From Candidatus Rifleibacteriota bacterium (GTDB lineage: Bacteria > Muiribacteriota > Ozemobacteria > Ozemobacterales > Ozemobacteraceae), in contig JBNJGH010000012.1 of assembly GCA_051747585.1 (NCBI GenBank), forward strand, positions 1-47,721: a stretch of DNA of 47,721 nt, read 5' to 3'. Both the position numbers and the translations under genes were made by a program. Below are positions 3,315 through 32,767 of this stretch, one piece after another. The notes beneath the pieces were generated by a model. It saw nothing but the letters and a program-made list of their open reading frames with translations, did not search any database and was not told the origin of the DNA. Every line of letters starts with the position of its first letter. Position 1 is the first letter of the stretch.

Positions 3315-3349
3315 TTCATCTCCTCTGAAAAGCATACTTTAATATTACA

Positions 3350-4917: not shown

Positions 4918-5010
4918 GCTTAACTCATTTATTCGTTGAAATCAGCCGATATAGAATTATACTTGTAATGTTACCAGCAAATTATTAACTGATGCAATGA
5001 GGATTTAAGG

Positions 5011-11971: not shown

Positions 11972-12018
11972 AAAAAGCTGTCTTATAGTCTTTTTAAGAA
12001 TTATAAGACAGCTTTTTT
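11971..12018. terminator. Bidirectional intrinsic terminator between convergent genes
   Basis: AAAAAAGCTGTCTTATA..TATAAGACAGCTTTTTT, perfect 17-bp inverted repeat. Confidence 0.85.
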
Positions 12019-12030
12019 ATCTAATGTTTT

Positions 12031-14169
12031 TTAGAGCTCAGCTTCTTGAGATAACTCTTTTTCGCATTGCTCAATTAAAGTGCGAATATTGTCGGCCTCA
12101 ACTCCACTCGGATTAGACTGGAGAAAGCGTTTGGCCGCATCTATGGCGTCATTGAACTGGCGTTTTCTTGCATAAATAACAGCAAGATTGTAATAAACCT
12201 GTTCAAATTTTGGATCGATTTCGAGAACCTTCATGTAGGCAGCAATTGCTTCGTTAATTCTACCTTTTTCAAATTCTTCGGTTCCAATGTTGTAATAAGC
12301 TGCAGCATCTTTGGGGTTAAGATCGATGGCTTTTTTCCATAATTCAATCGCCTGATCATACATACCCTTGTTGTAATAAGCGATTCCAAGTTTATTTCTG
12401 GCTTCTGAATCTTGAGGATTATATTTAATAACTCTCTTCCAAATCTCAATCGCTCTGTCATACATTTCCCGGTTGTGGTAAGCGGTTGCCAGGTTAGAAA
12501 GAATGTCGGAATCTTCGGGTTTGTATTTAAGAGCTTTTTCCCAGCATTCGACTGCTTTGTCAAAAAGATCCATTTTAATATAAGCAATGCCGAGTTTGTT
12601 GTAGAGTTCACCGTTTTCCGGTGTGATGCGAATTGCATCTTCCCATTCAGATACTGCCTGGTCATACATTTCTTTCTGGAAATAGGCAATACCAAGATTA
12701 TTATGGGCATCTACATCGTTAGGTGCAAGATCGATGACTTTGCGCCAGGAAAGAATTGCATCGTCGATAAGACCTTTTTCGTCAAAAGCGTTACCTAGAA
12801 CGAAATGAGTATTCGGATTATTCGGATCAAGCTCAATAGATCTTTTCCAGTTGGAAATAGCATCGTCGAGTTTGCGCTTTTGTCTGTAAGCATGGCCTAG
12901 TTTGAAATAAATATCAGGGTCTGAAGGGCTCAGGTTCTTTGATTTTTCCCATTCGTCAAGACATTCTTCAAATCTTTGCAGATTGTAATAAGCAATACCC
13001 AGATTATGATGGGCTTCGAAATGTTCTGAATCAAGCTCGATGGCTTTTTGCCACTGGAAGATTGCTTCCTGGGTTTTGTTTAATTTTGAATAAGCAATAC
13101 CGAGCTTATGATGGAGCTGGGGGTCATCACTTACATAAGAGATAGCCCTGTTCCAGAATTTTGCCGCTTCTGCAAAATCTTCCATGCCGCAATAGGCGTT
13201 ACCGATTTTTTCGCAGATATCGGCGTCTTCGCTACGCTTTTCTCTAACTGTATTCCAGTAAGAGATTGCTTTCTGAAAGTTGCCGGAATTATATTGCGCT
13301 ACACCCAGGTTAAAATGAGCTTCAATATCATTGGGATTGATTGAAATACATTTTTCCCAGCATTCAATAGCCTTATCGAGGTCATCGAGTTTTCCGTAAG
13401 CTGAACCAAGTTTAAAATAAACTTCGGAACTGTCTGGAGTTATTTCCAGAATCTTCTGCCAGATTTCTATGGCTTCACGATGTTGATTCAGCTTGCTGTA
13501 GGCATTTCCCAGATTGTTAAAAATTTCGGGTTGTCTGGGGTTTAGCGCAAGAGCTTTTTTCCACTCATCGATGGCCTGTTGGAACATTTCCAGACGATAA
13601 TAAACAATAGCAAGATTGTTATGTGCTTCTGAATTCTTAGGATTGAGTTCGATTGCTTTTGAAAAGGCTATAACTGATTTGTCATCAAGGCCTTTGTTAT
13701 AGTAGGCAACTCCAAGTCTGAAGAAAATGTCGGAATCTTCGGGATTAAGGTTTGAGGCCTTTTCCCATAAAGAAATAGCCTGATCTTCTTTGCCAAGATT
13801 GTAATAGGCTATACCAAGTTTAAAATGAATTTCGGGGTCATGAGGCCTTATTTCCAGGCATTGTTCCCAGAATTCAATTGATTTTGAATCTTCACCTTTA
13901 TTGTAATAGGCAATACCAAGATTGTGCAGAACTTCATAATTCTGTGGGTCAAGTGAGACGGCAATTTCCCATTCTTTAAGGGCTTCATCGATTCGATTCA
14001 GCTGGTAATAAGCTACACCAAGCTTAAACCTGGCTTCACTGTTTTGTGGATTTTTGATAAGAGATTGAATCCACTCTGAAATCGCCTGCTCATATTGGCC
14101 TTTGGTATAATAGGCAATACCCAGATTATAATGGGTGTTGGCTTCGTCCTGCAGATACGTGCGCTTCAT
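12031..14169 (-). CDS. TPR protein made of 20 contiguous 34-aa repeats
   Basis: Repeats of H/F-[NK]-LG-AY..A..W..A..P with exact 34-aa period. Confidence 0.95.
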   Translation of the reverse strand: MKRTYLQDEANTHYNLGIAYYTKGQYEQAISEWIQSLIKNPQNSEARFKLGVAYYQLNRIDEALKEWEIAVSLDPQNYEVLHNLGIAYYNKGEDSKSIEFWEQCLEIRPHDPEIHFKLGIAYYNLGKEDQAISLWEKASNLNPEDSDIFFRLGVAYYNKGLDDKSVIAFSKAIELNPKNSEAHNNLAIVYYRLEMFQQAIDEWKKALALNPRQPEIFNNLGNAYSKLNQHREAIEIWQKILEITPDSSEVYFKLGSAYGKLDDLDKAIECWEKCISINPNDIEAHFNLGVAQYNSGNFQKAISYWNTVREKRSEDADICEKIGNAYCGMEDFAEAAKFWNRAISYVSDDPQLHHKLGIAYSKLNKTQEAIFQWQKAIELDSEHFEAHHNLGIAYYNLQRFEECLDEWEKSKNLSPSDPDIYFKLGHAYRQKRKLDDAISNWKRSIELDPNNPNTHFVLGNAFDEKGLIDDAILSWRKVIDLAPNDVDAHNNLGIAYFQKEMYDQAVSEWEDAIRITPENGELYNKLGIAYIKMDLFDKAVECWEKALKYKPEDSDILSNLATAYHNREMYDRAIEIWKRVIKYNPQDSEARNKLGIAYYNKGMYDQAIELWKKAIDLNPKDAAAYYNIGTEEFEKGRINEAIAAYMKVLEIDPKFEQVYYNLAVIYARKRQFNDAIDAAKRFLQSNPSGVEADNIRTLIEQCEKELSQEAEL

Positions 14170-14194
14170 ACGGCCTCCAAAATTATTGTTCTGA

Positions 14195-15844
14195 TTAAAT
14201 TTTTAGATTTTCATCTTTATTGTCATTTTTCTTGTCAGAAAAAATATTATATTTGTCAACCATGCTGCTAAGCGTATTTCCAAAAGTTTCAAGAACAGAT
14301 TTAAGACCTGTTCTTTGTTTGAAACTTTGCAGCAAAACAACAGGGTTTTGTTTAAGTTTAAGAGATTTTAGTTGGTATCCATATCTGAAAGCAAGCTTTT
14401 CATTAAAAATATTTGCAATATCTGTTTCTAACGTTTTTTCTTTCAGGTTGTCTACCTTTTCAAAGTGCTGTTCTTGCGATTTTAACTCTTGATAATGTGA
14501 TTCTACAAGTTCTCTGGACATATAGGAAAGTAATAGATCGAAAGAATAAGTAAAAATTCCAAATTCAGGATTTTTTTCAAAGCTGATATGCTTTGCCGCA
14601 ACCATTGCCGGATGTCTTAATTCGGAAATTTTTGCATCTTTCTCTAAAGATATGGCTTGTATTTTTGCGAGAGAGGAATAATTATTGATTTTCTTTTCCA
14701 TGTTTTCCCGCAGAGGAAAGCTTTTGTTAAGAGAAGGCAGCTCATTCTCTTTTTCCAGCGGGAAGCTGTTGGGAAAAATATGAATTATGTCGGGTCTGTA
14801 AGAAAACTTTCTGGTATGAACCTGTCTTTTTTGTATTTTGAAATTTTGCGGAAATGATTTTACGGGCGCCGGTCTTTTTTTATCGTAATTGCGTGCAAAA
14901 CTTTGCTTGATCTGTTTCTTAAATTTAATTATCTGTGGCATGCGCTCAGGGAAGCAAAAGGGGAGGTAGGGGCTGAAAGATGCCGGTTCAAGGACAGAGC
15001 CTTCTATTGTATGCTTTTCATTTGGTGAATATTCAACGTTGCGGGGTATACCTGTTAAAAGATTGTCTATTTTGCTTTTAAGATGATTTTTTTCTTTTTG
15101 TAAAATATCGATATCGGCTTCAAGATCAGATGTTCGGTTTTCAAGTGACTCATGAGAGCTTTTAAACTTTTCATAACTAATTTTGAGGCTGTCTGAAAGT
15201 TTTTGAAATCTGGTTTTATCAATAGAAGTTTTGTCGAGTTTATTTCTAAGAGCCTCTATTTCCTGAGAATAATTGTCGACCATATCTTGAAGTTCTGAAT
15301 TATGACTTCTCAGGCTATAAGTCTGATCTCTGAATTCATTCAATTGCTTGCGGGCTTGCTCGAGCTCTTTACTGTTCTTTTTGCCTTCTTTTTCGCTATT
15401 GGATAAACGAAGACTCAAGTCTTTGCTGTGCATTTGCATTTGCTTGAGTTCATTTTGTAGTTTTTCAATCTGCTCGTTGAGCTTGTTGTTTTCTTTTTGC
15501 AGATTTTTAAAATCCATTACAGTATCAGCAAGGCTGAATTTAAACTGTTCTATTTTTTCTTCTTTTTCGGCAATTTCACTTTTAAGATTGCGAAGCTGCC
15601 TTGCCACATTTGAATTTTCCTCGGGAAGGTTTTCTTTTAAGCGTTGTTGCAGATTAATCAGCTCTGCAATAATTTCCGGAAAATTTATTCCCGAAACCTG
15701 AATTGAAAGTCTGAAAAATCTGTCGTCCTGTTTTTCTGCAGGCAAACTCTTAATAACTGAATTGTATTTCTGAATAAAAATTTTCAGAGTTTCAATATCA
15801 GCAATTAAGCGACCAATGTCAGGATTATTTGCCTTTTCTGTCAT
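14195..15844 (-). CDS. Hypothetical protein: long N-terminal coiled coil plus K/F/P-rich C-terminal half
   Basis: Heptad L/E/K/Q-rich segment at about aa 55-262; no signal peptide or TM. Confidence 0.8.
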   Translation of the reverse strand: MTEKANNPDIGRLIADIETLKIFIQKYNSVIKSLPAEKQDDRFFRLSIQVSGINFPEIIAELINLQQRLKENLPEENSNVARQLRNLKSEIAEKEEKIEQFKFSLADTVMDFKNLQKENNKLNEQIEKLQNELKQMQMHSKDLSLRLSNSEKEGKKNSKELEQARKQLNEFRDQTYSLRSHNSELQDMVDNYSQEIEALRNKLDKTSIDKTRFQKLSDSLKISYEKFKSSHESLENRTSDLEADIDILQKEKNHLKSKIDNLLTGIPRNVEYSPNEKHTIEGSVLEPASFSPYLPFCFPERMPQIIKFKKQIKQSFARNYDKKRPAPVKSFPQNFKIQKRQVHTRKFSYRPDIIHIFPNSFPLEKENELPSLNKSFPLRENMEKKINNYSSLAKIQAISLEKDAKISELRHPAMVAAKHISFEKNPEFGIFTYSFDLLLSYMSRELVESHYQELKSQEQHFEKVDNLKEKTLETDIANIFNEKLAFRYGYQLKSLKLKQNPVVLLQSFKQRTGLKSVLETFGNTLSSMVDKYNIFSDKKNDNKDENLKI

Positions 15845-15861
15845 TTTTTAATTAATTTGAG

Positions 15862-16647
15862 TCAAAGATGATGATAGAGACAAACACTAATATTATCAGC
15901 TCCACCATTCAAATAAGCAGCTTTCACCAGATTTTCCGCCAGCTCATTTAAATTGGTTCCTTCTGGTTTATAAACTTTCTCTATTATTTTTTGCAGGCTT
16001 TCATCTTCGACAAATCCACAAAGTCCATCTGAGCAGAGCATTATAAGATCGCCCTGTTTCAAGGTAATATTTTTCCGATCAACCTTTGGTGTTTCAGCTA
16101 CTCCCAATGCTCTGGTAATGATGTTTCGGTTGGGGTGAACAAAGGCTTCTTTTTCATTGATTTTACCTTGATCAATAAGTTCCTGAACCAAAGAGTGATC
16201 TTTAGTCAGTGTCTTTAGAGTTCCATCTTGAAAACGATAAGCTCTGCTATCGCCAACGTGAGCGAGTGCCAGAGAATTCCTATAAATGAGACCGGCAACA
16301 ACTGTAGTTCCCATTCCTTCCATTTCGGGGTTTTGACAGGCTTTTTCATATATGGCAAGGTTGGAATTTTTAATCCAGGTTTCCAGATAAGTAGTTTTGT
16401 CGGCGGTTAAAAAATCTTCGGGCAGAGTTTTGAATAAGTTGTCTACAACTTTATGTTTTATCGTTTGCACCGCCAGCATGGATGCAAATTCACCTGCTGC
16501 AGCACCGCCCATTCCATCAGCTAGTATAAGTGCAGTCACTTGAAAAGTGTTGCCCGCCGGGCCACACCAGTCTACGCTGATAGACTCGGCGTAATCTTCA
16601 TTATTGGGCCTGACTTTCCCTTTGTCGCTCAAGGTATAGAAATTCAT
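15862..16647 (-). CDS. Stp1/IreP family PP2C Ser/Thr protein phosphatase
   Basis: R..NED, ADGMGG, MGTT, HVGDSRAY, DHS, LCSDGL, GGADNIS. Confidence 0.95.
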   Translation of the reverse strand: MNFYTLSDKGKVRPNNEDYAESISVDWCGPAGNTFQVTALILADGMGGAAAGEFASMLAVQTIKHKVVDNLFKTLPEDFLTADKTTYLETWIKNSNLAIYEKACQNPEMEGMGTTVVAGLIYRNSLALAHVGDSRAYRFQDGTLKTLTKDHSLVQELIDQGKINEKEAFVHPNRNIITRALGVAETPKVDRKNITLKQGDLIMLCSDGLCGFVEDESLQKIIEKVYKPEGTNLNELAENLVKAAYLNGGADNISVCLYHHL

Positions 16648-16673
16648 TTAATTTCTCCCACAATATTTATGGC

Positions 16674-16702
16674 ATTCTAAAGTCTTTATAAGACAGAGTC
16701 AA
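16674..16702 (-). promoter_or_regulatory. Sigma70-type internal promoter for PP2C-coiled coil-TPR, with a palindrome in the spacer
   Basis: Minus strand TTGACT-17 nt-TAGAAT; spacer holds GTCTT-N3-AAGAC; GGGAGA RBS downstream. Confidence 0.7.
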
Positions 16703-16730
16703 CGTTTGTAGCGTTTTTTGCAGTTTTAAA

Positions 16731-19700
16731 TCAAGAAAAAATACTTTTTGAATTTTTATTGTTATTTGTATCGACATAAAAGGAGGGATTATCCATTTCT
16801 ATATCGTACCAGTCGGGAGTGGTTGGATGATGATAGGAACTTTTGCTTGAAACCGATCTTTTTGCTTTTACTTTGTTAAATTGCCAATCTTTAATTATTT
16901 TGTCATCCATTTTGAATAATTTTAACTTCTTATTTTCCTTTTTTATGGCTTTTGATTCAGGTAGGTCTGGCTCAAAAGAAATGGGGGAGGCCTCTTTTTT
17001 TATTAGAGAAAGGCGATCTTTTAACACTAAAGAAGTCGTTTGCGGTAATTTAGCGAAGCTGAATTCAGCATTGCGGGGATAAGACTTTATTAAATCGGGT
17101 GAATTGTAAGCTTGTGCGCCTCTTTCGATGGGGGTAATGCTGTAAATTAAATCATTTTGGTCAATTTTATCGAAAAGATTTTTGGTTGTAAGCTTACTGT
17201 AAGGTTTTGAACAGAATTTAAATTTGGAAGTAAGTTTAGAAGAAATATTAGTTTCCGGATAATCAGGTTGAACCGGAGATTTTAAACTGTAATTTAACTT
17301 GTTCTGATATATTTTTAAGAAATTACTTAGAAGAATTACCCAATGAATTGCTGTCATATCAAAATTTTTAAAAGGCTGGATTCTTGAATCGAGTCTTAGC
17401 CGCAATTTATACAATTTTATTTTTTGCTTTTTAGCAAATCTGATGACTTTTCTTTGCGATAATTTGGAAATTTTTTGCCCGATTTCATAATTGATAGTGC
17501 GAACTAATTTTTCTTTCTTTGCAGAAGTCAGTTCAAATTGGTTTTTAGATTCATAATTAAGTCTGGTTAAATTGCTTTCTTTAACAGTCAGATATTTTTG
17601 CAATTCAGGTTTGGGTATAGATATTCTGGCTTCGTTAAAAAAAACACTGGAATGGACTTTATGACTGAATAAGCAGGCATAGTTAGTTTTAAATTCGACT
17701 CCAACAGGAGCGAATTCTATAATATTCGAGGTTCTAAACTCTTCAGATGGGTCAAAATCTTGAGTCTGAGTTGCCTCTTCGATGTTAAAAAAAGCAAATT
17801 TATTTTCTATTCTATTTAAAAATTCAGGATAATAAGGAAAAAAGAATTGTCTGAATCTGGTTTGATACTCTTCTAGATTAATGTTTATCTTGTGCTTGAT
17901 TGCAGGAAAATTGTTATAAAAGGCAAAAATCGGTTTGTAGTTAAATATATTTTTTGAATCCCGAGTTTTGAAAGCTCGACTATGTTTAAGGTTAAACTTT
18001 AGATTTTTGTTAAAGGTGCGGTATTTCCTTTTGCTTATTGGGTATTTAAATTCTTTATCAGATTTTGTTTTGCACTCAAGACTTACAGAACTTACAAGTA
18101 AGCGGGTAACCTTTTGTCCTGTAATTGGTGAGATTTCTGATACAGTAAAATTTGTATGAACTTCAGGTTGAAACCAGTAGGTTGCAAAACTTTGAAAATC
18201 CTGACGGATTTCAGCCATGTTTCCAAAAAAAGAATCAAACTCTTGTTTTTCAAGCTGCGGGCGTTGCTGTCTAAAGGTATTACTGAATGGGTATTTGTCT
18301 GGTGCTGGTGGGCAATAAAAACTTTGATCTACAGAAGAAGAGCTGCCGTAATATGCCTGTTGTGTTCTAGTCAGGCGGCGCAGCAGATCGTTTTTGAACA
18401 ACCAGCTTTTAGGTTCTTTAAGACTGTATTTAGATCTAAAAGTTCTGGTTTTGGGAGTAAAATGAAAATAATTGATTTTCAGACTGGAGTCGTCTGAATC
18501 AGTTATAGCTGGTTTGGAAGTTTCATCCAGAGTTAGTAACTTAATTTTTTTAATACAGAAAGATGGAAATCCAAATTGAAAGGGCATAAGCTTGATAGCA
18601 CAAAAATAAGGCTTGGTTCTGAATTGCCATGGAGGCGGTTCAATAATGGTTGTTTGATTTAGTTTGCCGCCGGTTATAAATTTAATTATATTTAATTCGA
18701 GCTTTAAAAGTGAGCAAATTTGATCTGGTAATCCGTCTAAAATAGAAACAGCGGGAATAGTTTTGTGTATCGATGCTTTTAGCGGCTTTTCCTGATTTAA
18801 TTCAAAGGCTTTAAAATCATCTTTTAATAACAAATTGCTATGGTTAACAGGGGTGTTAACTCGTAATTTTTTGTTACAAACCAATCTTTTTCTTTTGGGG
18901 GCAGGAGATATAAACTCAAGTTCCTGTAGATTCTGTTGCTTAAAGCAGTAATTTTCAAGTGACTTCATCGGTTTGAATTTATGCAGTCCGGTCGAGAAAT
19001 GCCAGTAGTTGCTGGCTTGACCTTTTAATTTACGCCTGTGCATCGGTAAAACAATTTCGGTAAATGAAAGCCTGGTGACCGACATAAGAAAACTTTTGGG
19101 GCGTGCTAATAAGGTGATAAAGTCTTTAAAAATGCCTGTTAAATGAACAAAGTTCCTGAATCTGTAATCTCCTGACTCAATTGACTGGCGGCAAAGTTGA
19201 TTGAAATTGTAACCGGTTTTATAAGCTGCTTTCTTCAAGGCCGGCAATTTGATTCTTTTTAAGCTGAGGGCAGAGTAACGACCATGCTTTTGGGTTAAAA
19301 ATTTTAGTCTGTTTTTTTTTCTACAATTGCGGGCTGGCTTGAAGAGGGTTCTAAAAAAGTCCATTCTATATTTCCCAATGGGCTTTTCTTTAAGTTTTAT
19401 ACCCTTGTAATCTGCGCAAAAAGTTGGATGGTTTATTAAGCCTGCTGGACATGGTAAATTAATTTTTTTGAATATGGATTCGTATTTATAAGTTATGTTT
19501 TTAAAAGCATAACATTTAAGTTTTAATTTAAGCGCAAGCCTACTTTTTTGCACTGATTCAGTTGCTCTGGTTTTGCAAATAAATTTACCTTCGAGTCTTT
19601 GGGAATCCGAAGATATTTTATGAATTTTTTTCAAGTCTTGTCTGTTTGCTTTTATATTTTTGCTCGCCAAAATTCTGGCGTTTTCGGCTGAAAATTTGGC

Positions 19701-20663
19701 AGGTTGCATTTTAAAATGCTTGATGCCTATATTTTTTTTGTCTACTTTTAAGAAATTCAGTTTCTCCCGGTCTTCCCGGGTAACTGGAGCCAATTTGCCG
19801 CTTTTGGGTGCCAGGCGGGTATTTACTTCTATTACCAGATTTTTTCCTATTTCATTGCGTAAATCAAAATTAAAGCATTTTTCCAGATTAGATCTTAGTT
19901 TGGATGGGGCGACCTTGTAGTTATGTAGGGAAAGATGGTTGTAGTCAGGAAAAAACTCTTCAACTTTTCTCTTGAATTTAAGGTTTAAATCATTCCTTGT
20001 GGGGCGGTAAAATAAAAAATTATAATCTGCATTTTTTAATGGTATGTATTTGCAATTTAAACTCTTATATGGTGCAAAATCAGTGGTTTTAAAATCTTTT
20101 AGCAGAACTTGTTTAAAGTTTAATGATTTCAACAGCAAACTTGCAGGCGAATTGAAACGGTAAATATCAAAATCTGCACCTTCTGTTATTAATGACAAAC
20201 AGATTTTTTTATGCCGGAATAAAACGGGGCGAGGTATATAAGAAAAAAAATCCGGTTTTGCGCCTTGAACAAAAGTCGAAAAGAAAAAGTCTTTTAAAGA
20301 AGCATGTTTTATGTGTATCTGGTGAGAGAGTGCAAGTCTTTTATCGACTTTTAATTTTGTATTGTTTTCTTTTATTAATTTAGCTTGATTGTAAGAAACA
20401 GGAAAAAGTTTCAGTCGAGCAAATCTCAATCTAGTTAAGCTTTTCTGCCGGCATGGCATGAAAAAAAACAATGATTTTCGCGAAAAACATTTTGCTTTAT
20501 CTCTACTATATTTAAGCAGAACAGGTTGATTTTTAGCAGAAAAAACAGATTTTGCAGCAAGAGTTGTCTTTCTGCGTATATCTGCAGAAGTAAATTTTGC
20601 GGCTTTAGGGCTCGGAAAATCAAAAATGAGCCGACTGTTATGGTATTTTTTGTTCAGGGTCAT
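16731..20663 (-). CDS. Giant (1310 aa) highly basic K/F/S-rich hypothetical protein
   Basis: 3.9-kb open frame in very AT-rich DNA; ATGA overlap with the upstream gene; no recognisable domain. Confidence 0.75.
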   Translation of the reverse strand: MTLNKKYHNSRLIFDFPSPKAAKFTSADIRRKTTLAAKSVFSAKNQPVLLKYSRDKAKCFSRKSLFFFMPCRQKSLTRLRFARLKLFPVSYNQAKLIKENNTKLKVDKRLALSHQIHIKHASLKDFFFSTFVQGAKPDFFSYIPRPVLFRHKKICLSLITEGADFDIYRFNSPASLLLKSLNFKQVLLKDFKTTDFAPYKSLNCKYIPLKNADYNFLFYRPTRNDLNLKFKRKVEEFFPDYNHLSLHNYKVAPSKLRSNLEKCFNFDLRNEIGKNLVIEVNTRLAPKSGKLAPVTREDREKLNFLKVDKKNIGIKHFKMQPAKFSAENARILASKNIKANRQDLKKIHKISSDSQRLEGKFICKTRATESVQKSRLALKLKLKCYAFKNITYKYESIFKKINLPCPAGLINHPTFCADYKGIKLKEKPIGKYRMDFFRTLFKPARNCRKKNRLKFLTQKHGRYSALSLKRIKLPALKKAAYKTGYNFNQLCRQSIESGDYRFRNFVHLTGIFKDFITLLARPKSFLMSVTRLSFTEIVLPMHRRKLKGQASNYWHFSTGLHKFKPMKSLENYCFKQQNLQELEFISPAPKRKRLVCNKKLRVNTPVNHSNLLLKDDFKAFELNQEKPLKASIHKTIPAVSILDGLPDQICSLLKLELNIIKFITGGKLNQTTIIEPPPWQFRTKPYFCAIKLMPFQFGFPSFCIKKIKLLTLDETSKPAITDSDDSSLKINYFHFTPKTRTFRSKYSLKEPKSWLFKNDLLRRLTRTQQAYYGSSSSVDQSFYCPPAPDKYPFSNTFRQQRPQLEKQEFDSFFGNMAEIRQDFQSFATYWFQPEVHTNFTVSEISPITGQKVTRLLVSSVSLECKTKSDKEFKYPISKRKYRTFNKNLKFNLKHSRAFKTRDSKNIFNYKPIFAFYNNFPAIKHKININLEEYQTRFRQFFFPYYPEFLNRIENKFAFFNIEEATQTQDFDPSEEFRTSNIIEFAPVGVEFKTNYACLFSHKVHSSVFFNEARISIPKPELQKYLTVKESNLTRLNYESKNQFELTSAKKEKLVRTINYEIGQKISKLSQRKVIRFAKKQKIKLYKLRLRLDSRIQPFKNFDMTAIHWVILLSNFLKIYQNKLNYSLKSPVQPDYPETNISSKLTSKFKFCSKPYSKLTTKNLFDKIDQNDLIYSITPIERGAQAYNSPDLIKSYPRNAEFSFAKLPQTTSLVLKDRLSLIKKEASPISFEPDLPESKAIKKENKKLKLFKMDDKIIKDWQFNKVKAKRSVSSKSSYHHPTTPDWYDIEMDNPSFYVDTNNNKNSKSIFS

Positions 20664-23600
20664 GAAGTGTTTTTATTGCTAAGGGTATTGAATTTTCTAC
20701 CGGTTTGATTGGCAAGATTTAAAAGATCTTTGTAGCTGATAGCTGCAATTGAAAAGGATTTTCTGTCAATGTCGGAGCCCAATTTCTGTTTGCAGGCGAG
20801 AATTCTTCTTACAAAAAATACTCTATCTTTGAAGTGTAATCTGAAAGGGGCGTGTTTAAGTTCAAAGCTGATTGGTTTAATGCTAAGAGGATGAAAAAAT
20901 AATTTTTGTGGGGCTTTGAGTTGTTGGTTCAGGCAGAATAACAGATGTTTGTAAAGTTCGTCGAGTGCAACAGGGGCGGGGACGGTTAAGTTCGTTTGAA
21001 TACTTTTTTCTGTTTCTTGCAGATTAAACTGAGGTTTGTATAGGGGATAACCTTTAGTGAGTTGTGGAAGCGGATTTTTGGGTATGAACTTATCTACAAT
21101 TTTTTTTGATTCGTCGCGATATTTCTTTTCTATTTGCTTATCTATTTTCTTTCGGGGCAACTTGATATTGTCAATTAACTCTTTTTCGTTGTTTGATGAC
21201 ATAGAGACTTCAAAAATGAGATTTCGGTGCGGAATTTTGTTTGGTATTTCCGGCTCGCAATAATTTATTCTATATGAATAGATATTAAAACCCAGATCGT
21301 GCTGATTTAATTCGTCATAAACAGAAGGAGAAAAACTGATGATTTCACCAAATTGATCTTTGGTTCCAGGTTTACAGAGCATATCAATTTGTAAATGGAA
21401 TGGCAGACAGTAAATAACAGGAGGCGGTACAAACCATTTGGGAGCCTTGATATCTGTAACATCATAATTTTCAAGATCATAATGACTCACAAATCTGCTG
21501 TTCCAGGCATGCTTGAATTCGTGTTTCAATTTAGCAGATTCAGTTAGGCTCGGGCCGGTGCATGCAAATTCCGGTTCGATTTTTGTTAGAGGCTTTTTGT
21601 AGCCTGTGAAATAAATATATTCTATAGCTGGAATTCTGGAAATAGAATTAAAAGAAATGGCAGTTCGATTAATAAGGGATTTAGGCATTTTGTTGAGTTT
21701 TAAAATATTGCTTTTCAACAAAGTAAAGTCTGGCTGATTTTCTTCTGAGTCAGTGATAAAATCTGTGCGTAAGTGCTTTCTTTTATCAGGCTCAATATAT
21801 GACCGATCCAGGTTCGGTAAAACATAGATTGGCAAAACTTCCCAACTGTATTTCGCGACGTTGCGGGGTAGCTCCAGAGAAATATTCTTGAAAATTTCGT
21901 TGGGCTTGTTAAATAAGAAGTCAAGTCGATTGGTTTCTTTGGTAAAAAAGTCTGGAACTTGTTCTGAAATGGGCAGCGTATAAAATTCACAAGGAAAGAA
22001 TTTTTTAAAGTCGAAATTGGAAGACTTCAAGCTGGATTTCAGATACTGGATCTTGTATGACGCCTTAGAAGCAGACAAGGTAAACTTGAAGTTGTAATCA
22101 AGAAGCTGAGACTCTAAAGAAATTTTTTTATTAAGAAGTTCTTTTTTATTAAAATCTTTTGAAAGAAAATTTTCCCTTTTATTTTCTTGAGTTTGACTGA
22201 AATTTCCAGGAGAACCGTCGTAGTTCCTCTTTAAATTAATTAACAAATTAAGGTCGAAGGAAAAATCGGGGGCCGAAAACAGAAAAGAAAATTTGTTTGA
22301 GAAAAATAATTCAGTATTTGCATCTTTATTGCTTTCTAAAAAATTAAAACTATCTGCAAGAATGAATTTTTTCTCTGGTTTGAAAACAGAACCGGACTTT
22401 TTGAATAGCGAGTCTTGTGTTAAACCTTCATCGAAATCTTCAGAAACCTGATCTTCTAAGAGGGGAAGAATTTCAGGGATAACTGTAGTTGTTAATTTTG
22501 GTAATTCTAGATGTGGCTCATTGGTTGCAGTTATTTCTTCTAAATCCGACAGCTTGGATGAGAAGGAATTGAGATTTGCGGAAAAGGTACAATAATCTGC
22601 GCAATAATAGTGCCTTGATTCAGCAATTGTTTCTTCTGTTTTTTCCAGTTTCTTGTTTCTTGCAAAAATATCTTCGATAAAGAACTCAGCATCTGTTTGG
22701 TCGTATTGAAATGGATAAGCAATAACAACAGGTAGATCATGGGTGATTTTTGCAGAAAAAGTCTTAGATAAACCGACAAAAATTTGCCCTTTAAATATGC
22801 ATTCATTCTCGATTTTTATTTCAAATTCGGGGGGAATAAAAAAATGGGTAACTCCACCAATAGAGTAGATTTGACTTTTTTCTTGATAAGAGAATTTTAC
22901 ATATTTTTTTGAGTCGAGACCTAGAATTTGGGAAAGAGTAGGTATTTCTTTAAATTTCTGAAAAAATTTGAAGAAAATTGGGGAAGGGTAGTTGTTGCCT
23001 TTGAGATGAAAATCGATTCCGCTTCTTGGTGTAAACGAAGTACTATTTGAAAACCTGTCGTCAAAACGATAAACGGGTTTGTTTTTTACTTCTGGTACAA
23101 ATTTTTTGTCTGTTATGCGACTCTTTTTTAAAATCTTGCTATTGAAGCAATATTTAAAAACTCGAAGGGCAGGTTTTTTATTTATTGCAACCGGAAATTT
23201 TTCTTTTATTTGTCGACTAATGCCTATAATTTGTTGCCTGTGCCCGGTAAGGCGCACCCTTATCTGGTAGGAATCTTCAGATTCCTCAAGAAAAATTTGA
23301 ATATTTTCCGGTTCGGTAAATAATCTTACAGCGGCAGTTTTTTTTATTTCGTAAAGGTAAGGAGAAAGTTTATCAAGGAACTCTCCATCAAGAGAGGGGG
23401 TGAAGTCCGTTTGAACCGGTTCTGCTTTTTGAACATCATCTGTTATTCCTGAAGATAAAAATCTATTTAAACCGGAAAAAATTTGTTTCAACAAAGAGTT
23501 TGTTTTTAAAACAATTGGTGCTGCAATGTTTTTCTGGTGTGGGAATTCTTCTGTTTCAGGGATAAAATAGAAGTTAGAAAAATTGAAAAGTTTTTTGATT

Positions 23601-24250
23601 TCAGAGCTGGTTAAATCATTGTCGGAAATTTTCTGTTCATTTAAACTTTGAGGAACCCGGTTAAATACTATGAGAGCATTTTCTCTCGTTTGAAACATAA
23701 AAGCGGGAGACTTTCTGGATATCCCGTCGAGAAGTTTTAAGCTTTTTAAGTCAGGTCTTGAAATGAATAGAGAAATTGGAGAGTTCCCGTGCCAGAGATG
23801 GTTTTGCTCGAGCAGGGCGGATGTAAGCAGACAATATTTATCGCCCGAAGGAAAATTAATGAGAATAAAATCGAAAGCAGCACGAGTTTGTATGAAAAAA
23901 TCACGTAATGCCGCATCGGTAAAAAGAGACTCGGGCGATTCAATTTTATTTGCCGGAAAAATTGATATTTTCTCTGTGTCGGTAAAGAAAAAGGTTTTCT
24001 GGTATCTCGACTGTTGATATTTTACGTTTCTGCTAATTTCGTCATAAACCTGCAGATTGATAGAATCGGGAAAAGAGTTCCTTAATTTAAGGGGAGCAGT
24101 AGAGTCGAGATCTATTACTGCAATCTTGTTTCCTGCATTGTTGAGAAAAACAGCATAATTGGCAAGTAACGATGCCTTGCCGGTGCCAGCACTTATAGAG
24201 CTGAAGAGATATACAGGAGTAAGAAAAGATGCGCTACCCATTGTATGCAC
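20660..24250 (-). CDS. 1196-aa protein: degenerate MinD/ParA-like N-terminal domain plus about 900 aa of unknown sequence
   Basis: SISAGTGKASLLANYA..GNKIAVIDLD..FDFILINFPSG..IVFNRVP; start GTG 24250 or ATG 24241. Confidence 0.78.
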   Translation of the reverse strand: MHTMGSASFLTPVYLFSSISAGTGKASLLANYAVFLNNAGNKIAVIDLDSTAPLKLRNSFPDSINLQVYDEISRNVKYQQSRYQKTFFFTDTEKISIFPANKIESPESLFTDAALRDFFIQTRAAFDFILINFPSGDKYCLLTSALLEQNHLWHGNSPISLFISRPDLKSLKLLDGISRKSPAFMFQTRENALIVFNRVPQSLNEQKISDNDLTSSEIKKLFNFSNFYFIPETEEFPHQKNIAAPIVLKTNSLLKQIFSGLNRFLSSGITDDVQKAEPVQTDFTPSLDGEFLDKLSPYLYEIKKTAAVRLFTEPENIQIFLEESEDSYQIRVRLTGHRQQIIGISRQIKEKFPVAINKKPALRVFKYCFNSKILKKSRITDKKFVPEVKNKPVYRFDDRFSNSTSFTPRSGIDFHLKGNNYPSPIFFKFFQKFKEIPTLSQILGLDSKKYVKFSYQEKSQIYSIGGVTHFFIPPEFEIKIENECIFKGQIFVGLSKTFSAKITHDLPVVIAYPFQYDQTDAEFFIEDIFARNKKLEKTEETIAESRHYYCADYCTFSANLNSFSSKLSDLEEITATNEPHLELPKLTTTVIPEILPLLEDQVSEDFDEGLTQDSLFKKSGSVFKPEKKFILADSFNFLESNKDANTELFFSNKFSFLFSAPDFSFDLNLLINLKRNYDGSPGNFSQTQENKRENFLSKDFNKKELLNKKISLESQLLDYNFKFTLSASKASYKIQYLKSSLKSSNFDFKKFFPCEFYTLPISEQVPDFFTKETNRLDFLFNKPNEIFKNISLELPRNVAKYSWEVLPIYVLPNLDRSYIEPDKRKHLRTDFITDSEENQPDFTLLKSNILKLNKMPKSLINRTAISFNSISRIPAIEYIYFTGYKKPLTKIEPEFACTGPSLTESAKLKHEFKHAWNSRFVSHYDLENYDVTDIKAPKWFVPPPVIYCLPFHLQIDMLCKPGTKDQFGEIISFSPSVYDELNQHDLGFNIYSYRINYCEPEIPNKIPHRNLIFEVSMSSNNEKELIDNIKLPRKKIDKQIEKKYRDESKKIVDKFIPKNPLPQLTKGYPLYKPQFNLQETEKSIQTNLTVPAPVALDELYKHLLFCLNQQLKAPQKLFFHPLSIKPISFELKHAPFRLHFKDRVFFVRRILACKQKLGSDIDRKSFSIAAISYKDLLNLANQTGRKFNTLSNKNTS

Positions 24251-24263
24251 ATCATATCATAAT

Positions 24264-25151
24264 TTATAATTCAATTTCCATGCCTTCTTTGGCGAAATCA
24301 GTGGCTGGAAATAATTTACGAACTTCTTTTTCGAGATTGGAAAGAAATTCATCGGTGTGAAGTGGGTCATGATGCGTTATAATCAGCCTCTTTGCTCCTG
24401 ATGCTTTGGCAACCCTTACGCCTTCGTGTGGTGTCGAGTGCCCAAAACCTTGTTTGCCCGATTCTTTGAGGTTGAATTCGTGGGGGGCATATTCCCGGGG
24501 AGTGTATTGGCCATCATAAATCAAAAGATCTGCATCTTTTGCCAGATCTAACAAATTTTTATCAATGCTACCATCAGAGGGGTGCTCACAGTCGGTTGCA
24601 ATAGTGATGACTTTGCCGTTGTCTTCGATACGGTAGCCCAGAACCCCGCTCGGGTGTATCAATTTTGCAGCAGTAAAATGAGCATTGCCGATAGAAATCT
24701 GATTCTCAAGTAAAGATTTAAAGGATATTTCAGCAGATAGATAGTTCAAATCAACCGGAAAATAATAATTATCCATTTGTCCTCTAAGGGGGCTTTCAAG
24801 CCGTTCACCTACATCCGCTGCTCCGTATAGAATAAGTTCGTTACATTCTTGTAATACTTTTTCGCCTTTTTCATTTTTTTTGCCCACATAAGCCGGTGCG
24901 AAAAATGGAAAACCTTGAATGTGATCCCAGTGTGAGTGAGTGAAAAAAATGTGAGCTTTACCTTTGCCAACACCAAAGGGGCCTTTGAGCATTTCCTGGC
25001 CGAGAACCCTGATTCCTGTACCTGCATCTATTATGACATTTTGATTGTCAGAAGTCGTAATTCCAATACAGGTAGTGTTTCCACCAAATACTACAGTTTC
25101 TTTGCCAGGTACGGGTATCGATCCTCTGACACCCCAGAATCTTATTCTCAC
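24264..25151 (-). CDS. MBL-fold metallo-hydrolase (cyclic-nucleotide phosphodiesterase/RNase Z-like subgroup)
   Basis: FWGVRGSIP, GGNT.C, DAGTG, THSHWDHIQGFPFF, HP, TDCE, GHS, HHDP; GTG start. Confidence 0.9.
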   Translation of the reverse strand: MRIRFWGVRGSIPVPGKETVVFGGNTTCIGITTSDNQNVIIDAGTGIRVLGQEMLKGPFGVGKGKAHIFFTHSHWDHIQGFPFFAPAYVGKKNEKGEKVLQECNELILYGAADVGERLESPLRGQMDNYYFPVDLNYLSAEISFKSLLENQISIGNAHFTAAKLIHPSGVLGYRIEDNGKVITIATDCEHPSDGSIDKNLLDLAKDADLLIYDGQYTPREYAPHEFNLKESGKQGFGHSTPHEGVRVAKASGAKRLIITHHDPLHTDEFLSNLEKEVRKLFPATDFAKEGMEIEL

Positions 25152-25180
25152 CTCTGAATAGCCTTTCTATCGTATTTATC

Positions 25181-26065
25181 TTATAGATACATTGATACCA
25201 TAGATTCTACAACTCTTTCCAGATCTTGTTTGTTGTAGAATTCTATTTCTATTCTTCCCTTTGCTTTTCCCTGTCTGATGCGAACTTTTGCACCAAGCAG
25301 ATCTTGCAGATTTTCTTCGACTGCCCTTATGTGTAGGTCTGCATTCATTTTGGTTTTATTATCCTTTTTGGCTAAATTAGCAGGCAGATCTTTTTTTGAA
25401 CGGGCAATCTGTTTTTCGGTTTCGTAAACCGAAAGGCCTTCTTTAATGATTTTTCTCGCCCAGTTTTTTATGTGAACAGAGTCTCTCATTCCCGCAAGCA
25501 TTTTTGCGTGGCCGGGACTGATTTTCCCATCAATTATCATTAACTGAACTTCAGAAGGAAGTTGTAAGAGTCGCAGGCGATTAGTTAGAGCTGATCGACT
25601 TCGACCAATTCTTTCGGCAAGCTGATCATGAGTAAGACCATGATTCATCAAGATCTCTTTCAAAGTTCGAGCTTCTTCAAGTGGGTTCAGGTCTTTTCGT
25701 TGAATATTTTCAATTAAACCTGCCAGCATGGTTTGTTTTTCATCGAGCTTTCTGATGACGGCCGGTATCTTTTTCAGACCCGCCATTTTACCTGCTCTGA
25801 AACGCCGTTCACCTGAAACAATTTGAAAGTTGTTGCCGATTTGCCTTACCAGAATCGGTTGCAACACCCCATTTTTTTTTATTGATTGTGCCAGTTCTTC
25901 AAGATACTGCTTTTCAAAGACCTTGCGCGGCTGACCAGGATTTGCTGTTACCTGGTCCAGAGGCAGAAAACGAAAATTCATTTCGCTTTCGCTCTCAGAG
26001 AGAGCTACGCCTTCCAGGTTATTATCGACAAAATCCTGTGTGTATTTTAGTTCATTTTTTTTCAT
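25181..26065 (-). CDS. parB: ParB/Spo0J family CTPase partition protein
   Basis: NPGQPRKVF, GVLQPILVR, GERRFRA, ENIQRKDLNPLEEA, HTH GRSRSALTNRLRLL, C-terminal GRIEIEF..DLER. Confidence 0.95.
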   Translation of the reverse strand: MKKNELKYTQDFVDNNLEGVALSESESEMNFRFLPLDQVTANPGQPRKVFEKQYLEELAQSIKKNGVLQPILVRQIGNNFQIVSGERRFRAGKMAGLKKIPAVIRKLDEKQTMLAGLIENIQRKDLNPLEEARTLKEILMNHGLTHDQLAERIGRSRSALTNRLRLLQLPSEVQLMIIDGKISPGHAKMLAGMRDSVHIKNWARKIIKEGLSVYETEKQIARSKKDLPANLAKKDNKTKMNADLHIRAVEENLQDLLGAKVRIRQGKAKGRIEIEFYNKQDLERVVESMVSMYL

Positions 26066-26104
26066 AAGTAGAGAGTCGGTATTTTTATTTATTTTTTAAG
26101 TTTA

Positions 26105-26140
26105 TGCTATATTATTAAAGAATGACAACCAATTATATCA
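26105..26140. promoter_or_regulatory. Divergent extended -10 promoters between parB and the TPR gene
   Basis: Plus TGCTATATT (26105-26113); minus TGATATAAT (26132-26140). Confidence 0.45.
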
Positions 26141-26159
26141 TAAATCTGGAGGCGGATGC

Positions 26160-27389
26160 ATGTCTGATTTCAAAATAAGAGATTTGTTTCAACCTTTGTT
26201 CCTTTTCATCCTGTTTAGCAGTGTATTTGGTGCACAAAATTTGTGGGCACAACCCATAGAATCAACTCCTGAATATCAGGCTGCAAAAGAATTTCTTGCC
26301 CAGGGAGCTTACGATTCAGCTGTCGGTGAAATTGAAAAACTAATATCCAGGCGCAAGTTTTATGGTCCGGCTATGTTAGAACTCGGAAGAATTAGACTGC
26401 AACAGGCCGAAAGAGAAATGAGCATGGCGATGACTCATTTCAGCGAAGCGGCTGATTCAATGAAGTCCGGTTTGCAGGCAGATGGCGCTTCCGGTTCGGA
26501 ATTACCCAAAACTCTTTATGAGTTAGGAAATCTCTATGAAGAGAGGCTGAAAAACTTTGTTGATGCAGCTGAAATTTACGAGCGAATCGTTTTAAATCAT
26601 CCAGGCTATTTGTCTATTGATAAGGTTTATTTTCATCTTGCTTCCTGTTATGAAAAAATGGGCAAAAAAGAAGAAGCTGCCCGAAATTATCAAATTGTTG
26701 TAGATGAGTATGGTTATAGTTCATATTATGCCGCCGCGCAGGCGAAAATGAAAGAACTTGCAGTTGGCACCAGCTTTCAAAATGGCGCAATAGAGACCCA
26801 ATCAGATATTTACCTGGATGCCAAAGCCGGTGAAGATGAAGCGCAAGCCGCACTTGATCTTGCAGATATGCATGCCCAGGCCGGGAATTATGAACAAGCC
26901 ATCGATGCCTATCAAAAAGCTGTCGATTCGGCCGAAACTCAGGAAACTGGTATAAGAGCCTATCAAAAAATGATTGATATAATGAATAGCCGCCAAAAGG
27001 ATTATGAAGGGGCAGCCAGCGCTTTAGAAGAAATGATTTCTACTTATCCCGATGCCGAAAATGTTGATAAATTTATGTTCAGACTTGGTAGAATTTACGA
27101 AGAAGATCTCGACACCCTTAATACCAGAGTCGTAGACGGAAGAGTCTTGTACCGTAAAGACCCCGAAAACGTAGAAAAAGCGATAAATTATTATAATGAG
27201 TTAACGCGTAGGTTCCCTTATGCCGATGTATCTGCTGATGCCTTTGTAAGAAAAGGCAAGCTTTACGATAAGGAACTGAAAAACTATGAAAAGGCAAGAG
27301 AATCCTACCAGGAATTTCTTAGAAGCTTCCCTCATCATAGTCAGGCAGAATCTATACGTGCCAGGCTCGAAGAAATTGAAGACTGGTAA
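26160..27389 (+). CDS. Exported TPR protein (BamD/CpoB-like repeats)
   Basis: Signal peptide ending LWA-Q; A..Y..I...YP/HP-type TPR_6 repeats; GGAGG RBS. Confidence 0.85.
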   Translation: MSDFKIRDLFQPLFLFILFSSVFGAQNLWAQPIESTPEYQAAKEFLAQGAYDSAVGEIEKLISRRKFYGPAMLELGRIRLQQAEREMSMAMTHFSEAADSMKSGLQADGASGSELPKTLYELGNLYEERLKNFVDAAEIYERIVLNHPGYLSIDKVYFHLASCYEKMGKKEEAARNYQIVVDEYGYSSYYAAAQAKMKELAVGTSFQNGAIETQSDIYLDAKAGEDEAQAALDLADMHAQAGNYEQAIDAYQKAVDSAETQETGIRAYQKMIDIMNSRQKDYEGAASALEEMISTYPDAENVDKFMFRLGRIYEEDLDTLNTRVVDGRVLYRKDPENVEKAINYYNELTRRFPYADVSADAFVRKGKLYDKELKNYEKARESYQEFLRSFPHHSQAESIRARLEEIEDW

Positions 27390-30941: not shown

Positions 30942-31925
30942 ATGGTAAAGAAAAGACTGGTAAGCGGAATGAGAACCACAGGTTCACTTCATCTGGGTCA
31001 CCTTGAAGGCACTTTGAAAAACTGGGTAGAACTGCAAGATGAATATGAATGTTTTTTCTTTGCTGCAGTCTGGCACGCTTTTACCGACAGACTTAAAATT
31101 GAGAATCTGGCCAAAATAACCAAAGAAATGGTGGTTGACTGGTTGAGTGTCGGTATCGACCCCGAAAAATCAGTAATCTTTAGACAATCTGCGATGCATG
31201 AGCATGCCGAGCTTTGCACCATTTTGAGCAATATGACCCCTCTGGGCTGGCTTGAGCGCTGTCCTACCTTTAAGGATGAAGTGCGTGACAGTAAATCCAG
31301 GTCAGGCGTTTCTCTCGGAAAATTGATGTATCCGGTTTTACAGACTGCCGATATTGCTGCTTACAATGGCGAGGTGGTTCCCGTTGGAAAAGACCAGTTA
31401 CCACATTTAGAACTTTCCCGCGAAATTGTTCGAAGGTTTAATACCAATGCCGGTCAGGTTCTGGTTGAGCCGCAGCCTAAGCTGTCGCCCGTTCCCATGT
31501 TGCTTGGTATAGATAAGAGAAAAATGAGTAAGTCCTATGATAATGGAATTTATCTGCGCGAGACCCCCGAAAGCTTAAAAAAGAAAGTGCAGATGATGGT
31601 AACTGACCCGCAAAGAATGCGCAGAAATGATCCGGGCGATCCAGAAGTGTGCACAGTTTATGCATATCATAAAATTTACACCCCGGATCGCCTGGAAGAA
31701 ATTTCTTCCGGATGCAAGAGTGCAGGCATTGGTTGCCGCGATTGTAAACAAATACTTTTTGAACGACTCAATTCAATGCTTGAAGTTTATCGCCAGAAGA
31801 GAGTCGAAATTGAAGCAAAAGAAGGCTACGTAGAAGATGTGCTGGCCGATGGCGAGAAAAGAGCGCACCAGATAGCTCAACAAACTATTCAAAAAGTTCG
31901 CCAGACAATGGGCTTTTTATTTTAA
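30942..31925 (+). CDS. trpS: Tryptophan--tRNA ligase
   Basis: SGMRTTGSLHLGH (HIGH), YPVLQTADI, VPVGKDQ, KMSKS. Confidence 0.97.
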   Translation: MVKKRLVSGMRTTGSLHLGHLEGTLKNWVELQDEYECFFFAAVWHAFTDRLKIENLAKITKEMVVDWLSVGIDPEKSVIFRQSAMHEHAELCTILSNMTPLGWLERCPTFKDEVRDSKSRSGVSLGKLMYPVLQTADIAAYNGEVVPVGKDQLPHLELSREIVRRFNTNAGQVLVEPQPKLSPVPMLLGIDKRKMSKSYDNGIYLRETPESLKKKVQMMVTDPQRMRRNDPGDPEVCTVYAYHKIYTPDRLEEISSGCKSAGIGCRDCKQILFERLNSMLEVYRQKRVEIEAKEGYVEDVLADGEKRAHQIAQQTIQKVRQTMGFLF

Positions 31926-32711: not shown

Positions 32712-32767
32712 GCAAATAAGGAAGGAACCGGCAGATTTGTATTAATTTTCTGCCCCCCCCATAAATT

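Follow-up and report, generated by a model that had tools for sequence, protein, structure and literature searches.

A parB-led gene cluster confined to one Riflebacteria family encodes a giant protein with a degenerate MinD/ParA-fold head

A stretch of 47,721 nt from a Candidatus Rifleibacteriota bacterium (GenBank assembly GCA_051747585.1, contig JBNJGH010000012.1), hereafter the window, was analyzed at its full length. The window is one whole contig of a metagenome-assembled genome (MAG) that is 93.55% complete and comprises 330 contigs, and it carries on its minus strand, at 12031-26065, a cluster of seven genes led by parB. We show that the composition of this cluster is confined to one Riflebacteria family, that of the host (denoted f1; f2, f3 and f11 are other families of the phylum). 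Its third gene encodes a giant protein, G1, whose modelled head has a MinD/ParA fold in which Asn takes the place of the Walker B Asp; the f1 genomes searched yielded no canonical parA. We propose, tentatively and with somewhat less than even confidence, that the cluster substitutes for the undetected ParA: ParB-bound DNA would be tethered or positioned by it instead of being driven along by ATP hydrolysis. The relatives used for comparison are MAGs throughout, and "not found" in them differs from "absent".

The seven open reading frames (ORFs) are co-directional, their successive gaps measure 29, 13, -4, 83, 17 and 25 nt, and they end at one terminator, exactly as described in the original prediction. 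In the order of reading, all on the minus strand, they are parB (26065-25181; 294 amino acids, aa; ParB_N, HTH_ParB and ParB_C domains); MBL, for a metallo-beta-lactamase-fold hydrolase of the Lactamase_B_2 type that always adjoins parB (25151-24264; 295 aa); G1, with a GTG start, a degenerate MinD/ParA head and a long tail (24250-20660; 1196 aa); G2, basic, whose first 4 nt are shared with the end of G1 (20663-16731; 1310 aa); PP2C, for a PP2C-type Ser/Thr phosphatase (16647-15862; 261 aa); CC, for a protein with an N-terminal coiled coil and a C-terminal domain seen only in f1 (15844-14195; 549 aa); and the gene of a protein with ∼19-20 TPRs (14169-12031; 712 aa). A hairpin terminator at 11975-12025, to which no strand is assigned, is common to the cluster and to a convergent alpha-amylase gene. 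The hairpin is strong (-21.3 kcal/mol, z -7.3), none of 200 shuffles was as stable, and a U-run follows it on the minus strand. No transmembrane-like segment was found in any of the seven proteins.

The first gene encodes a full-length ParB of the chromosomal type and of ordinary appearance. Its product exceeds the cut-offs of PF02195 (115 bits), PF17762 (110 bits) and PF23552 (36 bits), and it scores 186 bits with TIGR00180 (cut-off 58). The motif GERRxRA, which we take to be the nucleotide-binding box of ParB, is intact (SGERRFRAG), and G85, E86, R87, R88 and A91 are invariant in the 18 ParBs aligned. No second ParB_N gene was found in the MAG. The N-terminal motif ..LGKGLGALL, presumably the ParA-binding peptide of ParB, occurs in all five ParBs that are encoded beside parA (f2 and f11) and is missing from nine of nine f1 and four of four f3 ParBs. 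The accessible part of PMC12704722 is consistent with this view of the motif.

No canonical parA was found in the window, in the MAG or in the other f1 genomes searched, in agreement with what had been claimed from the window. The MAG gave 12 AAA_31 matches, the best at 77 bits and none near the ParA_partition cut-off, whereas true f2 ParA, used as a control, scores 218-225 bits. The eight best AAA_31 matches of the MAG comprise MinD-like proteins fused to REC, cNMP, FHA or TPR domains, one MinD/FlhG-like protein and one Mrp. Such MinD-like-sensor fusions (loci L002-L009) include one inside the window, a cNMP-binding protein of 488 aa (1869-3335, minus strand). In five other f1 genomes, among them the two-contig genome G014, the best AAA_31 matches reached 68-94 bits, with one exception at 173.6 bits. 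The exception, which is the sole strong ParA match in genome G013, is a 596-aa fusion of a restriction-enzyme-like HSDR_N_2 domain to ParA (L086, G013:C11:369000-379000; 3404-6296, minus strand). A Rho_N/HeH protein comes after it, and the arrangement resembles the ParA-HeH type of defence reported in the accessible part of bioRxiv 10.64898/2026.10.19.760177.

The surroundings of parB differ among the families. The f2 locus reads mnmG-x-parA-parB-parS-dnaA-gyrB-gyrA, and at the one f11 locus parA lies immediately before parB; the f1 parB is no longer in the mnmG-rsmG-(parA)-dnaA origin neighbourhood. At four f3 loci (L067, L068, L074 and L076) the order is mnmG-rsmG-parB without parA, and a search of three f3 genomes detected no ParA at E<=1e-22. 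In the sister families parS lies within or beside parB, and the f3 genome G026 has a perfect parS inside parB. The MAG has a single near-consensus parS, on another contig, and no cluster of sites; G014 has four one-mismatch sites, which are scattered, against one control hit. SMC, ScpA and ScpB are encoded in the genome. The genes scpA and scpB lie ∼6 kb from parB and adjoin trpS (31947-33604 and 30942-31925, both on the plus strand), and the trpS-parB neighbourhood is kept in four of the five f1 genomes checked.

By sequence, the head of G1 is only weakly recognizable. Its N-terminal matches to CbiA/MinD have E-values of about 1e-4 to 1e-5, AAA_31 (18 bits) and CbiA (22 bits) stay under their cut-offs, and NF041546 gave no match. 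In the AlphaFold2 model of G1 (27 sequences, mean pLDDT 47), residues 10-270 (23441..24223, minus strand) form a MinD/ParA-fold head with pLDDT values of 56-91, mostly 77-91, in 10-residue blocks. A Foldseek search with the head returned MinD at the top (6riq_C at E 3.3e-9, 4v03 and 3q9l), followed by Soj (6iub), BcsQ and MipZ, at TMt 0.6-0.68, and hhalign gave equal scores for ParA and a MinD-like protein at a probability of 96%. We are confident that the head, as modelled, has the MinD/ParA (SIMIBI) fold, which bears out the degenerate MinD/ParA fusion of 1196 aa that had been proposed.

To call the catalytic motifs, G1 was aligned with genuine ParA, MinD-like and Mrp proteins of the phylum. 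Its Walker A Gly-Lys does not vary; the window protein reads SISAGTGKAS where ParA, MinD and Mrp of the phylum have KGGVGKT/S. Where the signature Lys would stand, the window has Ser and many orthologues have Arg or Lys; the Walker A Lys is followed by Ala, Ser or Thr, and the second Asp of the DxD switch is variable among orthologues. The Walker B Asp, present in all controls, is replaced by Asn (N132), and this replacement is nearly invariant both in the 27 and in the 18 G1 sequences. With the Walker A Gly-Lys intact, the Walker B Asp replaced and other catalytic motifs altered, the head is likely a nucleotide-binding switch that would hydrolyse poorly or not at all.

Beyond the head, residues 283-480 (22811..23404, minus strand) consist of a small alpha/beta module at 283-335 (block pLDDT mostly 69-78) and then short motifs; the motifs conserved after the head are YRFDDRF, IPxLSxxLG and VTHFFIPPEF. 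Residues 336-1166, on the same strand, have a pLDDT of about 30-35 and make up ∼830 residues of conserved length without a model. The protein ends in a basic amphipathic helix (residues 1173-1194; 20669..20734, minus strand; pLDDT about 60-68) with a hydrophobic moment of 0.45-0.71, and the net charge of the last 40 residues is +3 to +9 in 26 of 27 sequences. By analogy, this helix may serve for membrane targeting or for the binding of a partner. Residues 280-1196 had no usable protein-atlas match; the G1 tail, the C-terminal half of CC and two neighbouring ORFs gave chance-level Pfam matches only; and self-BLAST revealed no internal repeats in G1, G2 or CC.

G2, which had been listed as a 1310-aa unknown, matched no family in Pfam or NCBIfam, had no usable protein-atlas match, and gave no modelled fold: the AlphaFold2 prediction (residues 1-1150, 17 sequences) had a mean pLDDT of 35.6 and no confident segment. 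The protein is basic over its full length (K+R about 19%, pI 10), shares with the G1 tail a richness in Phe, Leu and Ile, and contains the conserved islands PFGFP, SLKxPRRW and FPY. At residues about 221-260 (window 19883-20000) a related strain has a 116-nt stretch of equal length whose divergence precludes alignment, which marks a hypervariable spot.

For ParB, MBL and PP2C the identities first proposed stand on family models over their cut-offs. MBL has an intact metal motif (HSHWDH, for HxHxDH) and scores 69 bits with PF12706 (cut-off 27). Its assignment as RNase Z was considered and rejected (TIGR02651, 67 bits vs. a cut-off of 293; the PDB matches span only the C-terminal ∼90 residues). 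PP2C scores 252.1 bits with the Stp1/IreP-type model NF033484 (cut-off 230), and PF13672 and PF00481 also exceed their cut-offs. In the TPR protein 18-19 TPR stretches were matched in 712 aa, so that the claimed 20 repeats become ∼19-20. The claimed 549-aa coiled coil applies to the N-terminal half of CC only, where coiled-coil matches are confined to about residues 50-265, and does not extend to the C-terminal half.

G1 was found in 21 of the 24 other f1 genomes and in none of 16 genomes from seven other families of the phylum. The three f1 genomes without a G1 match are MAGs that are 91, 64 and 70% complete. Searched against 1.84 billion representatives, a profile of the G1 mid-region (residues ∼275-580) retrieved no more than 52 proteins at E<=0.001; nearly all of them match at residues ∼275-570 of a ∼1190-residue protein, and 35 of the 37 orthologue-like hits (at least 1100 aa) measure 1156-1254 aa. 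The C-terminal domain of CC was detected in 14 of 24 f1 genomes, and the TPR protein, at E<=1e-120 and with a near-constant length across genomes, in 23 of 24; neither was detected in 36 others. The cluster copies of the two remaining enzymes form f1-only orthologue groups, with identities of at least 47% inside the group and 32-47% to phylum paralogues for PP2C, and of at least 48% and 34-49%, respectively, for MBL. For G2, a word-indexed search found just two close homologues, and an iterative search among positional equivalents joined 10 of 14 big ORFs of the same slot via short islands, with E-values that refer to a tiny database.

To map the gene order, the loci of 18 relatives were fetched and the window proteins were placed on each. 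The genes parB, MBL and G1 are contiguous and co-directional in 17 of the 18. The sole observed break of this adjacency is in G006, where parB still lies upstream of G1 on the same strand; at this locus (L036, G006:C170, 8550-12551) an insert of ∼4.5 kb on the opposite strand separates G1 from parB(-MBL) and encodes an AAA_14/DUF4143 ATPase and a PDDEXK_2 transposase-like gene. A giant basic ORF lies after G1 in all 17 loci that extend past G1 (1124-1499 aa where complete, pI 9.3-11.1), and by called starts G1 and G2 share 4 nt in 14 of these 17. Conservation of gene order in relatives, the lack of which would have counted against the original prediction, is thus seen for parB, MBL, G1 and the giant basic ORF, and homologues or positional equivalents of both giants are always found beside parB. 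In genus g9 (L029 and L030) three ORFs occupy the place of the single G2 between G1 and PP2C (1124/495/1499 aa and 898/395/1446 aa), and the G2 profile did not recognise them. PP2C follows G2 on the same strand at the loci of 13 relatives. In G012 it was not seen within the 1.9 kb that precede a masked stretch, and at three further loci the fetched stretch or the contig ends before PP2C.

The seven proteins change at very different rates. Identities and dN were measured against the window's protein, with dN taken against L034 and L022. The TPR protein is the slowest (identity 81-94%, dN 0.045-0.055); in the five f1 genomes in which it was set beside TrpRS its identities are 94, 92, 85, 84 and 81%, compared with 65-78% for TrpRS. 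ParB (53-73%, dN 0.20-0.27), MBL (48-73%, dN 0.21-0.28) and PP2C (47-75%, dN 0.19-0.31) are intermediate. The C-terminal domain of CC shares 25-43% identity in full-length matches (dN 0.59-0.73 for the whole protein), G1 18-65%, with 34-36% within the genus (dN 0.66-0.83), and G2 13-56% (dN 0.78-0.89). The TPR protein thus evolves ∼15 times more slowly than G1 and G2. For all seven genes pN is lower than pS (pS 0.73-0.81). Since synonymous sites are saturated in every gene, the substitution pattern is that of a TPR protein conserved by selection and not by recent transfer.

Contigs of a related strain from a sediment run differ from the window by 5.6% at 13478-18158, by 12.8% at 20344-23075 (the G1 tail), by 7.5% at 23383-25076 and by 6.6% at 25084-26185. 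The six G1 indels of this strain form three frame-restoring pairs, and by a hand count 24 of the 33 differences listed in the G1 head at 23414-23775 fall on third codon positions.

Other features of the window were also recorded. The G+C content at 16001-24000 (G1, G2, CC and PP2C) is 0.34-0.36, compared with ∼0.40 in the flanks, and the plus-strand GC skew is strongly positive over the same interval, with a maximum of 0.215; low G+C and positive skew over G1-PP2C probably reflect coding for proteins rich in Lys, Asn, Phe and Ser. A 16-bp perfect palindrome, GCTCAAAATTTTGAGC, occurs in four copies in the MAG (window 44354; contigs C22 and C150) and is its commonest perfect 16-mer palindrome. 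No tRNA gene and no Rfam match was found within the window.

No described system of this composition was found in Pfam, NCBIfam or PADLOC, and, judged by title and abstract, none of the papers listed on chromosome partition in Riflebacteria or on Rifleibacterium and Ozemobacter concerned this cluster, in agreement with the original prediction, which recognised no such system. The parts come from known superfamilies, and clade-specific ParB partners are an established idea. With ParABS the cluster has in common a full-length ParB with an intact GERRFRA box, encoded in one operon with a ParA/MinD-fold protein, and the presence of SMC-ScpAB. It differs in that the gene order is reversed, with the MBL gene between parB and the P-loop gene; the P-loop protein has 1196 aa, an 830-residue tail, no Walker B Asp and (in the window) no signature Lys; and ParB lacks the ParA-linked N-terminal motif, at a locus off the origin cluster and without a nearby parS consensus.

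Both by fold and by sequence, the head of G1 is matched best by MinD, and G1, too, ends in an amphipathic helix, here a basic one. MinD carries its amphipathic membrane-targeting helix straight after the ATPase domain; in G1, however, the helix lies ∼900 residues from the head, the catalytic motifs are degenerate, and no minC or minE is linked. MipZ, which is among the fold hits of G1, is likewise a ParA-like protein that would work with ParB and not move it, but it is a small active ATPase that regulates FtsZ, and the likeness of G1 to it is limited to the shared fold. The scaffolds PopZ, HubP, DivIVA, BacNOP-PadC and PomXYZ embody the same idea, a clade-restricted scaffold, in part of low complexity or coiled coil, that holds ParB-parS or ParA-like proteins, and each of the anchors PopZ, HubP and DivIVA belongs to its own clade. 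No relation in sequence or fold between these scaffolds and the cluster proteins emerged, no test having been aimed at them, and we know of none among them that unites a pseudo-MinD giant and a basic giant with an MBL, a PP2C and a TPR array of extreme conservation. The orphan ParBs in the accessible part of PMC12704722 likewise lie outside a parAB operon and lack the ParA-binding motif; the orphan ParB of the cluster, in contrast, leads a conserved operon with a ParA-fold pseudo-enzyme. MinD or lactamase partners of orphan ParBs are not mentioned in that part of the source.

If the cluster stands in for ParA, as we tentatively propose, its parts may work together as follows. ParB would still load on parS-like sites and on SMC. 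The G1 head would bind nucleotide and hydrolyse it poorly, acting as a static dimer or as a switch that contacts ParB or DNA, and the C-terminal helix would attach to the membrane or to a partner, so that G1 would be a long tether whose length is fixed. Produced jointly with G1, G2 could coat or bridge DNA through its positive charge. PP2C, CC and the TPR protein would form a second unit, in which the TPR array reads short motifs of G1, G2 and CC, and PP2C resets the phosphorylation of these three proteins. The chromosome anchoring, Ser/Thr phosphorylation control and nucleotide-messenger role suggested in the original prediction are likewise inferences. A bolder version, which we regard as distinctly unlikely, holds that a passive, nucleotide-locked tether replaced ParA: the pseudo-MinD head would sit on ParB-parS, the ∼900-residue spacer with its membrane helix would set the distance between centromere and envelope, a co-translated G2 would coat DNA, and the nearly invariant 20-TPR hub and PP2C would read and reset the motifs of these fast-evolving proteins.

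Several observations weigh against these proposals. Some residual ATPase activity of G1 is possible, to judge from its motifs, because many orthologues keep Arg or Lys at the signature position and some the Walker A Ser/Thr. The G1 tail and G2 are rich in aromatic and aliphatic residues and lie near the folded side of the charge-hydropathy boundary; because of this composition, their low pLDDT is not taken as a sign of a disordered or extended state. In the nearly closed G014 dnaA lies 2.3 Mb from the cluster on a 5.2-Mb contig. The parS consensus has no match in the window at up to three mismatches. Lastly, the sole direct link seen between G1 or G2 and ParB is gene order, and synteny around the locus is broad in f1, extending to the upstream TPR gene, ORF 27286, the amylase gene and trpS, which as a rule hold position as well; gene order alone is for this reason weaker evidence.

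The family-specific giants may have other business than the chromosome. It is possible, though in our judgement unlikely, that ParB is only a parS-bound loader of SMC, and that MBL, G1 and G2 are family-specific proteins, neighbours and perhaps co-transcribed, with a different task, for instance as a cytoskeletal scaffold for polarity, the division site or the envelope that is built on a MinD-like switch and does not act on ParB or the chromosome. According to the accessible part of PMC12704722, orphan ParBs without the ParA motif are widespread and some are only SMC loaders; a ParB without ParA is thus not unusual per se. Family f3 looks like a second ParA-less lineage: no ParA was found in it, its ParBs lack the motif, and it has no G1, so that G1 is dispensable for life without ParA. 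The G1 head is at least as MinD-like as it is Soj/ParA-like, proteins of the MinD type position many cargoes, the genome is rich in MinD-like ATPases fused to REC, cNMP, FHA and TPR domains, and synteny around the locus is high in general. Against a ParB that works apart from its neighbours, parB-MBL-G1-G2 remain closely spaced and point the same way in 17 of 18 relatives though the identity of G1 drops to 18-20% in the farthest relatives aligned, parB departed from the origin cluster only in the G1-bearing family, and a ParA/MinD-fold gene that adjoins parB is a hallmark of partition loci.

A rather unlikely account, which overlaps both the proposal that the cluster stands in for ParA and the view of ParB as an SMC loader, takes the cluster for two unrelated neighbours, a parB-MBL-G1-G2 operon and a PP2C-CC-TPR signalling or scaffold operon that are adjacent by descent. 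The gap before PP2C (16648-16730, minus strand; 83 nt) exceeds all others of the cluster, both in the window itself and in 11 of 13 co-directional loci of relatives, where it measures 38-307 nt, and it contains a promoter-like site, TTGACT-17-TAGAAT, at 16702..16674. In G057 (genus g12) PP2C and the TPR gene are inverted together and there is no coiled-coil gene, which also speaks against one joint machine, as does the ∼15-fold slower change of the TPR protein. Because of the widest gap, the promoter-like site and the g12 inversion, the cluster probably consists of two transcription units, parB-MBL-G1-G2 and PP2C-CC-TPR, with the boundary at the G2-PP2C gap; of the single cluster originally proposed, the common direction stands, and transcription as one unit probably does not. 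That the two units are unrelated is less readily reconciled with the fact that every gene belongs to an f1-only family or an f1-only orthologue group, and with the inverted PP2C-TPR pair of g12, which still adjoins the rest of the cluster. A TPR array and proteins rich in short motifs would, moreover, make a natural pair of reader and ligand.

Two further explanations carry little weight. The cluster would have to be considered as an anti-phage or anti-plasmid defence system derived from ParA/ParB, since the accessible part of bioRxiv 10.64898/2026.10.19.760177 describes ParA-like NTPases (some inactive, some with TPR sensors) and inactive ParBs in immunity, and one ParA fusion of such a kind occurs in the relative G013. 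We reject this reading as very improbable because nothing specific came from PADLOC, whose matches (coiled coil, TPR and PP2C) are weak and generic. In addition, parB is the sole ParB_N gene of the MAG, with a housekeeping architecture and an intact GERRFRA box, the cluster occupies one syntenic place in nearly all f1 genomes and is not patchy, and no effector domain was seen besides MBL. The view that the G1 tail and G2 are junk or decaying ORFs would explain why they have no family match and no confident fold and change very fast, but it is hardly credible: ORFs of 1100-1500 codons persist in DNA of about 35% G+C at all 17 loci, both their length and their start overlap being conserved, pN (0.44-0.52) is lower than pS (0.75-0.80), indels between strains keep the frame, and short motifs are conserved.

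These data bear on how chromosomes may be held in Riflebacteria. The placement and separation of origins in ParA-less bacteria are poorly understood, and the cluster provides a clear natural example: throughout one family ParB looks normal and lacks the ParA-binding motif, no canonical ParA was found, and a conserved giant pseudo-enzyme of ParA fold is instead linked to parB in an operon. Some of the fastest-evolving proteins of the genome are paired with one of the slowest, a TPR array that is more conserved than a tRNA synthetase, and fast partners with a slow TPR array are a pattern typical of a hub that reads short motifs. The cluster parts are all soluble proteins and can thus be tested in E. 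coli although the hosts are uncultured. If the passive tether were true, it would represent a new class of bacterial centromere-anchoring machine.

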